From: Vulcanimicrobiota bacterium
Lineage (GTDB): Bacteria; Vulcanimicrobiota; Xenobia; Xenobiales; Xenobiaceae
Length of the DNA: 64,000 bases
Assembly: GCA_944322965.1 (NCBI GenBank)
Contig: CALUQR010000009.1
Coordinates: forward strand, 8,845 to 72,844
Direction: 5' to 3'
In this document: in pieces, positions 49,584 to 64,000 of the stretch
Layout: each line of letters opens with the position of its first letter
Numbering within the stretch: the stretch's first letter is position 1
The notes under the pieces: model-generated
Told to the model about the DNA's origin: nothing
Seen by the model: the letters and a program-made list of their open reading frames with translations, nothing else
The model's database searches: none
Made by a program: the position numbers and the translations under genes

Positions 49584-51815
49584 CTAATAAAAGCTTGCGC
49601 TTGGCGCTGTGTCGCTCTTCTTCTCTTGGCCCGCCTCCCGCGCCCGTTGCGCCTCTCGGAGCCACTTAACTACCGTACGCCAACTGGAGTTTTCCGCCCC
49701 GCGGTCGATAGCCAGGATACGCTCTAAATAGCGCTCTCCCCCTGACTCGCCCTCTTCGAGGACCCAGCTATAGCGCAACCAGAGGAGCTGTAAGAGGCCG
49801 CGAGCTAAAGCGTTGCCCCTAAAGTAGACGATCCCTCCCCGCTGCCAAAAGCCTTGCCAATAGAGATCGATAGCTCGCTCTACCAGTTGCCGGGCGCGAT
49901 ACTTGTCCCCCCTACTCCAATAGAGCTGGCCCAATTCGCTATAAACCGTCGGTTGGTTGAGAGGATCGAGGCGCAAAGCCCGCTGATAGGAGGTTATAGC
50001 CTCCTGGAAATAACCAAACTTCTCGGCTAGGCGCCCTTGGACGATCCAATTAGGAGCGCCTAGGGGGTCTAAATGGATCGCTCTCCTACTTAGCTCTAAG
50101 ATCTCGCGCGCCTCAGAGGGCGAGGGGTTAAAGGCGGTTGCCCCCGCCAAAGCGGCCCACTCGCGCCAATAGCTACCGATTGCGGGCGCCACCTGAGCCG
50201 CCTGGGCGTAAGCCTGACGAGATTTAACCCATTCCCGTTCTTGTTGCCACGAGCGCCCCCAGCTGGCGTAGTAGGCCCCCTGCCAAAATGGATAGAGAGA
50301 GAATAAACCTCCTAGAGCGATTACCCCTACCGCTATCTTTACAGTGGCAAGACCTAAGGGGGGCCACTCCATCTCCGCCGCGGGACGCAAGCCCCAGGCG
50401 CAACCCGCCAAAGAGAAACCCCAGAGGGGTAAGGTCAAAAAGTTGCTCTCTAAATCGAGTTGGGCGTGTAGGAGGAGGAGTAAAGCTCCCAACCCCCATG
50501 CCCAAGCTAAACGTCCCTCCTCCCCCAGAGGTTTAATCCCTAAGCTAGCTACCCCCCACAGCCAGTAGAAGGAGGCGGCCACGGCTACTATCAGCGCGGG
50601 CCAGCCCGCTTCGCATAAAATATCTAACCCCAAGGCGTGGGGGCGCTGACTGTACCAGCGCAGATCGCGCTGATAGAGGGCGTAAAAGCGTTGGTAATTA
50701 TCGGCTCCCACCCCTTGGAGAGGATGATCGGTAATAATCCCTCTAGCCACCCGATAGAATTCGCGCCGCGCTAAGAGCGACTCGCTCTGACCGCTCACCT
50801 CCCCTTGGCGCTGGCCCTGCCACAGGATTTGGCGCCCCACCTCTAGCCCCCCTAAAGCTAGGAGACCTAAGAGAAAGATCCCTCCCACAACGCCTAAAAA
50901 GCGGCGCGCTGAGGGGCGGGGGTAGAGATTCCACGCTCCCAAAAGGAGGGCTCCCAACCAAGCGGGAGCGAGGTAAACTAGATTATTTATAACAAAGACG
51001 CCCCAGGTAAAGAGCGCTCCCGCCATCTCGTAGCGCCACCACTCTCCAGCCCCTATAGGCCGCTCCCCAGGCTGCCGACTATAATAGATAGCCACCGCCA
51101 ATACGGCCCATCCCCCTAAAAGCCAGGCGCTGCGTCCGTAAGTAAAGAAGAGGGAGAAGGCCGTAGCTATAGCGAGAAGGTTATCGCCAATTCTCAGCCC
51201 CAGCGACTCGCTCTGAGCGCCCTGCCATAGGCGCCCTAAGGTCAAAGGCCAAGTAGCTAGGAGAAAGGCGGCCAACATATTGGGCTGGTAGAAGGTCCCG
51301 CCCAACTCAAAGTTATCCCCCAATTCGCCCCACTGTTCACTGACCGTCCAGGAGGCCGCTAAGACTAGGGCTACTAAAACTTGCAGCGCTCGCCCAAAGC
51401 TCTCCAACTCCCCGCGCTGCCAACGGCGCGCCCCCCAGGCGCTCACCCAAAAGAGGAGGATCCCCGTCGCTAAGGGCCAGGCTCTAGCTAAGCTCTCGAG
51501 CCCATTGGCCGCCCGCCCACTGGCCCCCAAGAAGAGGCCCCCACCTAGGAAGCTTAAAATTAGTAGAGGGAGATCGCCCCGCCTCCTAGGGACCGCCAAG
51601 ACTAACCCCCAACAACTTAGGAGACAGACTGAGAGGGCTAAGCCCCACTGGGCTAAGTCGGAGCTACCCCCAGCATCGGAACTAAAGAGCGTAGCTAAGC
51701 CGATCTCCCCTAGGCCAACCCACCCTCCGGCAGGGGGGAGAGCCAGCGCTCCCCTCCCAGCAGCTGAGCTAGGGAGGTTAAGGCGGGAAAGGCTAAGATA
51801 GAAAGCAGCCCCCAA
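49584..51815 (-). CDS. O-antigen ligase/Wzy-like polytopic membrane protein fused to C-terminal TPR repeats
   Basis: YGRSAWL and QRPHALGLDILCEAGWPAL match O-antigen ligase motifs. C-terminal TPR-like repeats. Confidence 0.65.
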   Translation of the reverse strand: MGAAFYLSLSRLNLPSSAAGRGALALPPAGGWVGLGEIGLATLFSSDAGGSSDLAQWGLALSVCLLSCWGLVLAVPRRRGDLPLLILSFLGGGLFLGASGRAANGLESLARAWPLATGILLFWVSAWGARRWQRGELESFGRALQVLVALVLAASWTVSEQWGELGDNFELGGTFYQPNMLAAFLLATWPLTLGRLWQGAQSESLGLRIGDNLLAIATAFSLFFTYGRSAWLLGGWAVLAVAIYYSRQPGERPIGAGEWWRYEMAGALFTWGVFVINNLVYLAPAWLGALLLGAWNLYPRPSARRFLGVVGGIFLLGLLALGGLEVGRQILWQGQRQGEVSGQSESLLARREFYRVARGIITDHPLQGVGADNYQRFYALYQRDLRWYSQRPHALGLDILCEAGWPALIVAVAASFYWLWGVASLGIKPLGEEGRLAWAWGLGALLLLLHAQLDLESNFLTLPLWGFSLAGCAWGLRPAAEMEWPPLGLATVKIAVGVIALGGLFSLYPFWQGAYYASWGRSWQQEREWVKSRQAYAQAAQVAPAIGSYWREWAALAGATAFNPSPSEAREILELSRRAIHLDPLGAPNWIVQGRLAEKFGYFQEAITSYQRALRLDPLNQPTVYSELGQLYWSRGDKYRARQLVERAIDLYWQGFWQRGGIVYFRGNALARGLLQLLWLRYSWVLEEGESGGERYLERILAIDRGAENSSWRTVVKWLREAQRAREAGQEKKSDTAPSASFY

Positions 51816-51883
51816 CGAGCTACCCGCTCTAGGCTGACAGCCCTCGTGCGCCCGGAAGTAGCTGGGGCTCCCATAGGTTCCCC

Positions 51884-62668: not shown

Positions 62669-62689
62669 GACTCTAACTAGCGCGGGGGA

Positions 62690-64000
62690 TTACTTGCGAC
62701 GCGAGGGCAAGGAGCGTCCCTTGCCAGGTCCGCCGCTGGCGATCTTAGCTTGCAGCTCCTTAACCCGAGCCTCTACGTCGCGATAGGTCACATCGAAGGC
62801 CAAGATGCTCTTGAACTCGGTCAGAGCCTCTTGCAAGCGATCGGTCTGGTAGAAGAGCATGGCCAAGTTGTAGCGCAACTCTAAGTAGTCTTGTTCCGGA
62901 TGGCCCTTAGTATCTAAGCCCAAACGGAATTGGCGAATGGCCATTTCACGCATGCGCGGCATCTTGATAAAGGAGAGGCCCAACATATTGCGCGAGCGCA
63001 ATTCTAAATCACGGTCGGCGTGAGTCTTCTGGAACTGCTCGATAGCGTCGCTAATGCGATTCAGGTAGTAACATAACTCGCCATAGATGTAGCGCAAGGA
63101 GAGGTCAGAGCTATCCTGGGAGATCCGCTCCATAAAGGAGCTGCAGATCTCTTCCGTCACCTCTTTGCCAGCCGCCTTGTCGATAGATTGCAACTTTAAG
63201 AGTACGGTCGCCGCCTCTTTGGCCTTCCGCTGGTCGACTAAGAGCTGAGCGTAACGGCGCATAGTATGGGCGTCGCCGGGCGCCAACTCGAAGATCTTCT
63301 TATAGACCTGCATAGCTCCGCTCATGCTGTGCAACTGCTCGTCGTAGAGCTTAGCTAAGCGGCAGTGGAGATCGACCCTCTCGGGGGCCAACTCGATAGC
63401 CCGGCGCAAGAAGCGCACCGAGTCGCGATACTCACTCCGCTTCTCATGGATCTCAGCTAAGGCCAAAAGCTCTTTGAGCATATTGTCGCGCTGGTCGTCC
63501 ATCGTATAGAAGGAGAGTAACTTCTCGCGCAACTCGACCGACTCCGGATCGGCCGCCACCAACTGGGTGTACATATCGATAGCCGCCGCCGCCAAACGCT
63601 CCGACTGGTAGCGCTCCGTCAGAGGCTCGACCTGCACCATAGCGGCCGCCAAATTATTTTGCGCTAAGTAACAGTCGACTAAGCGACGCCGCGCTTCGTA
63701 ATGGGTAGGATCGCGCTTAATGATCTCCTCTAAGAGCTTAGCCGCCTCGTCGATCATATTCTCATCTTTATAGAGCAGGGCTAAGGCGAACTGCGAAGAG
63801 ATGACCTGATCGTAACGCCCTAAGTTCTGGTAGAGCTCGATCAACATGTGGCGCTTCTCGAAGTTCTGAGGCTCTAAGCTCACCAACTTTTCGCAAGTGG
63901 CCAAGGCCTCCGCCCACTTCTTCTCGCCATAGTAGCGATCTAAAAGTTGGCGATAGTAGACTAAAGCTTCTACCGCATTGTTGTGCTCCTCATAGACCTT
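62690..64000 (-). CDS. TPR-repeat protein, 5' end beyond window (open frame continues past 64000)
   Basis: The same reading frame is open from 63904 to the window edge (…KVYEEHNNAVEALVYYRQLLDRYYGEKKWAEALATCEKL…), so the listed M is not the true start. Confidence 0.5.
   Translation of the reverse strand, partial: KVYEEHNNAVEALVYYRQLLDRYYGEKKWAEALATCEKLVSLEPQNFEKRHMLIELYQNLGRYDQVISSQFALALLYKDENMIDEAAKLLEEIIKRDPTHYEARRRLVDCYLAQNNLAAAMVQVEPLTERYQSERLAAAAIDMYTQLVAADPESVELREKLLSFYTMDDQRDNMLKELLALAEIHEKRSEYRDSVRFLRRAIELAPERVDLHCRLAKLYDEQLHSMSGAMQVYKKIFELAPGDAHTMRRYAQLLVDQRKAKEAATVLLKLQSIDKAAGKEVTEEICSSFMERISQDSSDLSLRYIYGELCYYLNRISDAIEQFQKTHADRDLELRSRNMLGLSFIKMPRMREMAIRQFRLGLDTKGHPEQDYLELRYNLAMLFYQTDRLQEALTEFKSILAFDVTYRDVEARVKELQAKIASGGPGKGRSLPSRRK

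Follow-up and report, generated by a model that had tools for sequence, protein, structure and literature searches.

On the minus strand of a 64,000-nt stretch of contig CALUQR010000009.1 (GCA_944322965.1; Vulcanimicrobiota, class Xenobia), referred to here as the window, eight co-directional open reading frames (ORFs) follow one another with intergenic gaps of 1-68 nt. All of them were recovered where an earlier model-based reading of the bare sequence (the original prediction) had placed them, and its domain calls (TPR, Roadblock, Wzy-TPR) agreed with Pfam, profile and structure tests. In the order of transcription, the genes encode the C-terminal part of a large TPR protein (TPR1; 62690-64000, with Pfam TPR matches and a frame still open at the window end), a second, all-TPR protein (TPR2; 58229-62668, 1479 amino acids (aa) from a TTG or 1471 aa from the ATG preferred by gene callers), a Pro-rich bitopic membrane protein of 416 aa, probably a tether (56972-58222), and a 298-aa protein with two PATAN-like domains and a double-psi β-barrel (56051-56947). 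These are followed by a single-domain Roadblock/LC7 protein of 119 aa (55651-56010; Pfam Robl_LC7 E 6e-4 and an orthologue profile), a 445-aa protein in which a TPR part is connected to a Roadblock domain by an acidic linker (54282-55619), and two Wzy_C proteins with C-terminal TPRs, Wzy1 (798 aa; 51884-54280) and Wzy2 (ORF of 743 aa, 49584-51815; likely original extent 49584-51874). A terminator scan placed a GC-rich hairpin with a 13-bp stem and a T-run at 49460-49488, between convergent gene ends, which probably marks the end of the transcription unit. A sigma-70 promoter scan gave a result no better than shuffled sequence. Single-sequence searches of the 416-, 298- and 445-aa proteins returned no Pfam match, and NCBIfam gave only generic TPR matches for the Wzy-TPR proteins and the TPR giants and none for the four small proteins.

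Longer contigs of the same species reach beyond the window end and display the genetic context of the block. On one strand they carry a pilT-like gene, pilC, pilA, pilD, pilM, pilN, pilO, a gene for a 265-aa lipoprotein and pilQ, followed by TPR1, TPR2, the tether, the PATAN-barrel protein, Roadblock, TPR-linker-Roadblock and Wzy_C-TPR, with an extra Wzy_C-TPR copy in the window species. In one of these assemblies (L015; assemblies and loci of the comparison carry L numbers), precomputed Pfam annotation lists T2SSE, T2SSF, N_methyl, Peptidase_A24, PilM_2, PilN, PilO and Secretin contiguous with the block. The PilT-type ATPase and the pilin were identified by direct sequence reading, the pilin also by NCBIfam matches. 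The block is therefore contiguous with the PilT, PilC, pilin, PilD, PilM, PilN, PilO and secretin genes of a type IVa pilus (T4aP) cluster. Because it forms the distal part of this cluster, it is a pilus-associated module and not a free-standing envelope machine. The original prediction of an undescribed polarity- or envelope-associated machine holds in that we found no publication describing the block as a unit, while the free-standing envelope machine has given way to a module behind pilQ.

The order of TPR giant, TPR giant, disordered membrane protein, 295-308-aa protein, Roadblock, TPR-Roadblock and Wzy_C-TPR is kept in 10 further loci (L009, L010, L011, L016, L017, L018, L023, L026, L027 and L028), and synteny persists down to approx. 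30-40% protein identity. In all five genomes with a visible upstream side (L015, L016, L017, L018 and L028), pilMNO(P)Q immediately precedes TPR1. The most distant locus, L028, comes from a metagenome-assembled genome (MAG) labelled Armatimonadota and contains true orthologues: the PATAN-barrel protein shows 34% identity along its entire length, and hhalign probabilities were 97% for Roadblock and 98% for TPR-Roadblock. Neighbourhood conservation, suggested by the original prediction as a check, was thus found as a conserved unit in every relative examined. Two side observations concern the pilus genes themselves. L016 encodes a 925-aa prepilin peptidase with a faint TPR_19 match (78-2855), and L028 carries a tandem pair of secretin genes (4601-8663).

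The full TPR1 protein measures 2158-2175 aa in other assemblies of the species (L014 and L015), in which it is encoded directly downstream of pilQ. It consists of an N-terminal TPR array, an acidic disordered region of approx. 1200 aa and a C-terminal TPR array, and it lacks a signal peptide. The acidic region contains about 19 near-perfect tandem copies of a 17-aa unit (EGEAQYEGAYHEEVQPL; L014 3428-9955). In several assemblies TPR1 is broken or truncated at the repeat region (873 aa versus 2175 aa). An exact look-up of the partial TPR1 protein of the window gave no match because the window end cuts the gene. TPR2 matched the Pfam family TPR_19 with 215 bits as well as many further TPR families, and its orthologues of 1142-1482 aa occupy the same position in eight relatives. 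Neither giant contains a hydrophobic segment, and TPR2 is a cytoplasmic scaffold. Membership in the SgmX family (NCBIfam NF052243) was rejected: its cut-off is 1800 bits, whereas TPR2 reached 118 and TPR1 35.5 bits, and other TPR families scored higher. The FimV family model found no match among the TPR giants.

Giant cytoplasmic TPR proteins and Pro-rich single-pass membrane proteins are also parts of the gliding machinery of Myxococcus. An Agl-Glt-like or other surface-motility complex that merely adjoins the pilus genes could account for such a combination, and TPR2 indeed gave weak matches to the GltE model. These matches reached 60 bits against a cut-off of 225, however, and reflect generic TPR similarity. 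In addition, neither the block nor its flanks contain genes for an AglRQS/TolQR-like motor or for Glt outer-membrane proteins, and the linkage is specifically with pilQ. We regard a gliding complex as very improbable.

The product of the fourth gene, which the original prediction had left as an unknown, was interpreted from its structure model and from DUF4388 matches across its family. The predicted structure was confident (pLDDT 89.8). The first ~195 residues form two similar α/β units resembling PATAN (DUF4388) domains (approx. 1-105 and 106-195), followed by a helix and a C-terminal double-psi β-barrel (approx. 210-298). The C-terminal ~90 residues gave a fold match to the double-psi β-barrel of the CDC48/VAT N-domain type. 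Among 18 family members, 17 matched Pfam DUF4388 (best E 2.8e-5), and the L017 orthologue showed a faint PatA_N match. A comparison of the family profile with the sequences of solved structures yielded nothing significant. The idea that the PATAN-like domains are hidden Roadblock domains was rejected, since a profile-profile comparison with the Roadblock family revealed no relationship. An exhaustive profile search found approx. 35 full-length relatives and approx. 290 further proteins that share residues 1-190 alone; several of the latter matched DUF4388 at, near or above the cut-off or the archaeal family DUF2226. This wider family (~290 representatives, P0177-P0290) is characterized by an N-terminal tandem PATAN-like unit of ~190 aa with the signature MxxPxG…FTGYV. 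Four examples were read, and in each a linker (Pro-rich in three) connects this unit with a distinct conserved C-terminal domain (SYPFLDPFAxEFEY). One member, P0191, lies on an 8-kb contig, and its gene context was uninformative.

PATAN domains of Synechocystis bind PilB1 as well as PilC's N-terminal domain and suffice to switch pilus-driven phototaxis; motor binding is known for PixE (bioRxiv 10.1101/2021.06.11.447907). The putative tandem PATAN identity of the 298-aa protein is the most informative link between the block and the pilus motor, and binding to the motor is putative here, by analogy with the cyanobacterial proteins. Proximity of PATAN proteins to MglB homologues is known as well (PMC4316618).

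Both Roadblock assignments were confirmed by profiles. By itself, the 119-aa protein scored 19.9 bits against Robl_LC7 (PF03259; cut-off 23). Its orthologues carry Robl_LC7 in precomputed Pfam annotation, and their profile matched the Roadblock chain 7f8m (2e-9), CvnB5 (1e-5), MglB (4e-5) and MglC (1e-3) in the PDB. The C-terminal domain of the 445-aa protein aligned with the 119-aa family at a hhalign probability of 98% (E 6e-14) and matched PDB Roadblock structures with E values of 1e-5 to 1e-4. Both proteins thus belong to the Roadblock/LC7 profile family. In an AlphaFold2 model of the 445-aa protein, residues 1-190 fold with confidence into a TPR-like helical domain that includes a coiled-coil hairpin, the acidic linker (194-324) is disordered with pLDDT <50, and the C-terminus (330-445) displays the Roadblock succession α-β-β-α-β-β-β-α. 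The Roadblock fold, which the original prediction had named as a point to be checked, was accordingly seen or matched in both segments. The acidic linker, regarded there as unusual, does exist and is ordinary disordered filler: its length varies from absent to ~300 aligned columns among the orthologues. A role as a functional element was rejected for this variable-length, lineage-specific and non-conserved segment.

Roadblock proteins raise the question of a partner GTPase. One or both of them might be the GAP or GEF part for an unlinked Ras-like GTPase, with the TPR giants as SgmX-like effectors. In Myxococcus, MglA works on T4aP via the TPR protein SgmX (PMC11580455). Orphan mglA and mglB genes are on record: in the 2014 survey, 328 of 749 MglB homologues were orphans, none of which was characterized at that time (PMC4316618). 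The window itself harbors a Frz-like che cluster with a CheA-CheY fusion. It comprises genes for CheW, CheR (441 aa), CheW, a methyl-accepting chemotaxis protein with HAMP, CheA-CheY and CheB on the plus strand (13114-20370), with a divergent hybrid kinase-receiver gene beside it (11329-13320). This layout resembles Frz and Pil-Chp, and the cluster is a candidate input to the pilus module. It had been called adjacent to the block in the original prediction, yet it is 29 kb away and separated from it by Lon, rhomboid, lipid-metabolism and other genes.

The GTPase scans point in the opposite direction. A Walker-A scan of the window detected no small GTPase, in agreement with the original prediction, and matched only a ParA/Mrp-like ORF and Lon. 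The same scan in 8-26 kb around the block in seven related genomes found no GTPase, PilT being the only true P-loop protein as read. In comparison, an mglB gene is found at a distance of at most four genes from 390 of 449 mglA genes (PMC4316618), and no MglA-family gene lies that close to the Roadblock genes of the block. An MglA/MglB-type switch as proposed originally thus receives no support from gene coupling. An unlinked GTPase is possibly encoded elsewhere in the genome; the scans were confined to the window and the related loci.

Most relatives instead offer a candidate for a different kind of input. In seven of them, the two Roadblock genes flank a pair of genes for a single-domain response regulator and a histidine kinase of the GAF/PAS type. 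The pair is backed by Pfam in L009 (12188-14160), L010 (12099-13966), L011 (1631-3722), L016 (24564-25451) and L018 (22544-24658) and was assigned by ORF size and position in L026 and L027 (11262-13229). Because these genes adjoin a Roadblock gene in most relatives, a phosphorelay input is suggested, which speaks against a GTPase. Taken together, we consider control by an unlinked Ras-like GTPase a tentative and rather unlikely explanation.

The Pro-rich protein starts with a signal-peptide-like segment and a short outside stretch, followed by a single transmembrane (TM) helix ending in LxWE and a Pro/Ala/Gly-rich disordered region of ~330 aa. Hydrophobicity analysis indicated one strong TM segment at residues 57-75. 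The signal-peptide-like segment, the short stretch and the TM helix with LxWE were common to all eight orthologues, and basic residues follow the helix wherever the orthologues could be read clearly. As the signal peptide is succeeded by a TM helix and basic residues, the Pro-rich part is probably cytoplasmic and the protein, as far as its sequence tells, a membrane-anchored disordered tether. A periplasmic location of the Pro-rich region was rejected on the same grounds. The "GFAPPKAP-repeat envelope protein" of the original prediction therefore keeps its repeats and its signal peptide and loses its envelope placement.

The window tether contains eight GF[AT]PPK repeats (with a matching DNA tandem repeat at 57193-57376), the acidic-aromatic motifs EEEEPFKALLNK and SEDSWKALAQ, and LALDIKRGG at its C-terminus. 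Across the eight orthologues the motif [DE][DE][DE]DP[FW][KR]ALL[KR]K is conserved in one to four copies each, and a basic C-terminal motif similar to RTISLDLKKGG is recognizable in most. The corresponding motif peptides are EEEDPFKALLKK and RTISLDLKKGG. The filler between the motifs differs by lineage: the window lineage has the GFAPPKAP type, L027 has poly-Pro, and in L017 and L018 the filler is rich in Lys and Glu. We rejected the GFAPPKAP repeat as a functional element, since it is absent from the orthologues and constitutes lineage-specific filler. Overall, the original prediction was right about anatomy and conservation, missed the pilus context beyond the window and over-read low-complexity features such as these.

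Both Wzy proteins exceeded the Pfam Wzy_C cut-off of 31.7 bits (Wzy1, 52.9 bits; Wzy2, 40.9 bits), and both possess multiple hydrophobic segments and C-terminal TPRs, which places them in the Wzy_C superfamily of polytopic membrane proteins. Wzy2 additionally matched Wzy_C_2 with 31.4 bits. Judging from the helices read after the catalytic loop, the TPRs would face the periplasm. Wzy_C combined with C-terminal TPRs is the architecture of the O-oligosaccharyltransferases WsfB and PglL (PMC2943079). A single Wzy1 orthologue with a Wzy_C match closes the module in the seven relatives with a visible end; the orthologues of L027, L023 and L026 were identified by position and size only. The 161-aa pilin of the window species (L015 2485-2970) has a Ser/Thr-rich C-terminal tail (…ESQMTGTDSTATGG) that is absent from the L016 and L017 pilins and might serve as an O-glycosylation site. 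A position immediately downstream of a pilin gene, which is typical of TfpO/PilO, was not found for the Wzy genes of the window species; only an extra Wzy_C-TPR gene in L017 directly follows a pilin gene (366-3010).

The block might then be viewed as an envelope glycan or protein-glycosylation machine functionally separate from the pili, with Wzy_C-TPR as its core and the TPR giants and the Pro-rich protein as scaffolds or substrates. Pro/Ala/Ser-rich low-complexity regions are typical targets of O-glycosylation, as in PglL substrates, and would fit this explanation, as does the Wzy_C-TPR gene that closes the module in those relatives with a visible end and a recorded Wzy_C match. Downstream of the module, L011 carries genes for a Bac_transf sugar transferase and a PglD-like acetyltransferase. 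In L010 a 405-aa polytopic membrane protein, ArnT/PMT-type glycosyltransferase-like by eye, is inserted between the PATAN-barrel and Roadblock genes (10415-11632). However, neither a signal peptide nor a TM segment is present in the TPR giants, in the PATAN protein or in the Roadblock proteins, and the Pro-rich part of the tether, which its topology places in the cytoplasm, would be beyond the reach of a periplasmic ligase. Moreover, Wzx, Wzz and OPX genes and a set of glycosyltransferase genes are absent from the window block, which is tightly linked to pilMNOPQ. A separate glycan machine appears decidedly unlikely.

Wzy2 turned out to be a species-specific duplicate. It is a paralogue of Wzy1 with 33% identity, and the sister species L023 has a single Wzy-TPR gene and no Wzy2. 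Eight independent assemblies of the species are >99.8% identical to the window over 17.9 kb; in a ninth (L003), the Wzy2 region is identical to that of the window. All 20 indels among the eight assemblies fall inside the 2.2-kb Wzy2 gene (49584-51874, minus strand), at G tracts (~51437, ~50852 and ~49913), a (TC)4/5 repeat (~50302) and a 5-nt site (~49611), and in most samples gene callers cut Wzy2 into two or three pieces. Upstream of the Wzy2 ORF, a 54-aa ORF in another frame, which begins with an ATG (51874) 9 nt past the Wzy1 stop codon, resembles the Wzy1 N-terminus. Addition of one G to the G4 run at ~51748-51751 restores a 763-aa Wzy2 ORF colinear with Wzy1, and this frameshift near the 5' end appears common to all nine assemblies. 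Wzy2 is probably a frameshifted, decaying pseudogene or a phase-variable contingency gene. An intact second enzyme was rejected because of the shared 5' frameshift and the further disruption in most samples, and owing to the frameshift and the simple-repeat indels Wzy2 was not counted as such. Of the two Wzy-TPR fusion proteins proposed originally, the domains were thus correct, and the second is probably not intact.

From these results, we estimate a probability of roughly 60% that the block is a distal, lineage-specific accessory module of the T4aP gene cluster which combines a scaffold for pilus regulation with a periplasmic glycan ligase. Most likely, it controls the place and timing of pilus building and adds sugars to a surface component. 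Several points weigh against this assignment. Beyond the T4aP synteny and the domain identities, it draws on the precedents named above. Likeness of the TPR giants to SgmX is generic and far under the model cut-off; the 298-aa protein of the window matched PF14332 weakly (14.6 bits, E 0.035, cut-off 25), and no solved PATAN structure surfaced by which its fold could be confirmed. The sensory pair is absent in the window species, L017, L023 and L028. A gap of 200-1000 bp separates pilQ from TPR1 in all loci, from which the module is probably a separate transcription unit. Finally, the Wzy genes of the window species lie 20 kb from pilA, so that adjacency does not indicate pilin as the substrate.

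If the block is a T4aP accessory module, its five non-membrane proteins, together with the tether's cytoplasmic tail, would form a scaffold on the cytoplasmic side of the pilus machine. As a single-pass protein, the tether would anchor this assembly and display its [DE]3-D-P-[FW]-[KR]-A-L-L motifs together with the basic C-terminal motif, which might be read by TPR arrays, Roadblock domains or the double-psi barrel. In Myxococcus, the TPR scaffold SgmX brings PilB to the pilus machine (PMC11580455), and the Roadblock proteins MglB and MglC form a complex in which MglC binds the C-terminal helix of RomR with W394 as a critical residue (PMC12719032). By analogy, the two Roadblock domains of the block probably pair like MglB-MglC and would offer a docking platform. 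The PATAN domains may act as the output by contacting PilB, PilC and PilM and thereby gating pilus extension or cellular position. In most relatives, input would come from the response regulator and the GAF/PAS histidine kinase whose genes lie between those for the Roadblock proteins. In the window species it may have another source, e.g. an unlinked GTPase or the che cluster located at 13-20 kb. On the periplasmic side, Wzy_C-TPR could move undecaprenyl-linked glycan to pilin or another exported protein or, alternatively, polymerize or ligate a surface glycan needed for pilus function. A cultured relative, Vulcanimicrobium alpinus, shows phototactic movement with type IV pili (PMC9758169), and regulated pilus motility therefore occurs in the phylum.

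Comparison with known systems revealed partial similarity to each of them. The polarity module of Myxococcus (MglA, MglB, MglC, RomR/RomX, SgmX, FrzS and SopA) has in common with the block a pair of dissimilar Roadblock proteins, a large TPR scaffold in the cytoplasm, a response regulator (here in most relatives), associated PATAN proteins (PATAN-like here) and the control of T4aP, which is proposed for the block. The Pro-rich disordered protein with its short aromatic motif recalls the MglC-bound C-terminal helix of RomR with W394. In contrast to Myxococcus, the block encodes no GTPase and its genes are located directly behind pilQ rather than scattered. Its TPR giants are 1.5-2 times as long as SgmX and fail the SgmX family model, its disordered protein has a membrane anchor, TPRs are fused with one of the Roadblock domains, and a putative glycan ligase belongs to the unit. 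Cyanobacterial PatA-type regulators (the PATAN-REC proteins PixG, PixE and LsiR) employ PATAN in pilus control, as an output binding PilB1 and the PilC N-terminal domain. Here, two tandem PATAN-like domains of marginal DUF4388 similarity are joined to a double-psi β-barrel without a receiver; relatives encode the receiver separately, and the window species lacks it.

Like TfpO/PilO, PglL and WsfB, the Wzy proteins are polytopic Wzy_C proteins, with C-terminal TPRs as in WsfB and PglL. They are encoded in a pilus cluster, and the L017 copy follows a pilin gene as tfpO does. Unlike these enzymes, they have no PglL-specific domain match except Wzy_C_2 in Wzy2, and they are distant from pilA in the window species. 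The sequence is compatible with a ligase as well as a polymerase role. Actinobacterial conservons (CvnA-D) also combine a histidine kinase with Roadblock, an arrangement found here in relatives, and include CvnB5, matched by our Roadblock profile. The block differs from them in lacking CvnC (DUF742) and the CvnD GTPase, in the cytoplasmic GAF/PAS kinase with its receiver and in the pilus context. FimV/HubP organize pilus regulators at the membrane or pole and resemble TPR1 in their very large acidic repeat region and TPR-like modules. TPR1, however, has neither LysM nor TM, and the membrane anchor is contributed by a separate small protein.

The host is gut-associated and belongs to the class Xenobia of the Vulcanimicrobiota, close to Candidatus Bruticola. 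An identical 298-aa protein occurs in 286 blocks of a public assembly collection, including MAG GCA_949288465.1, while homologues are rare (20 among 5.8 billion clustered proteins). Among their source labels are Candidatus Xenobia and Vulcanimicrobiota; others simply say "bacterium", and one is given as Candidatus Nitrosotenuis. For the 445-aa protein and TPR1, sources of homologues include Candidatus Bruticola as well as Candidatus Xenobium. The species representatives originate from a Hadza human gut sample, goat rumen and other rumen MAGs, and UBP9 and other MAGs. Convergent with the block, a plus-strand gene (48654-49412) encodes a 252-aa protein with a weak Peptidase_C39_2 (papain-like) match and no signal peptide. 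As its orthologues in L009 and L023 have the same position and orientation beside the Wzy-TPR gene, it may be part of the conserved neighbourhood. Elsewhere in the window, 24001-25590 and 22266-23798 encode an RTX-repeat protein with a C-terminal effector-like Peptidase_M91 domain and, beside it, a ComEC-type competence channel.

The component families of the block were known already, and a link between pilus polarity and Roadblock, PATAN and TPR proteins is established. Their joint occurrence in a single conserved unit behind pilQ, which Vulcanimicrobiota share with one MAG labelled Armatimonadota, is new, as are the fusions of tandem PATAN with a barrel and of TPR with Roadblock, the membrane tether bearing conserved short motifs, and the arrangement as a module without a linked GTPase. 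To our knowledge, the placement and timing of type IV pilus building are understood in detail only in Myxococcus, Pseudomonas and a few cyanobacteria. Here, Roadblock, TPR, PATAN and receiver parts are hard-wired behind pilQ in a nearly uncultivated phylum with members in human, primate and rumen guts. No GTPase is encoded with the module, which therefore provides a compact, testable set of candidate interactions in pilus regulation. The block also bears on the many orphan MglB-like proteins (PMC4316618), and its putative glycan ligase, together with the degenerating or phase-variable duplicate, points to surface variation in a gut setting. We further considered, as a speculative and unlikely possibility, that the block is a self-contained, GTPase-independent device for type IV pilus polarity and activation, in which the tether motifs recruit the TPR giants and a Roadblock heterodimer, the PATAN-barrel protein couples to the motor and the response regulator replaces a Ras-like GTPase. 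If this were true, Roadblock platforms could serve bacterial polarity without a small GTPase.

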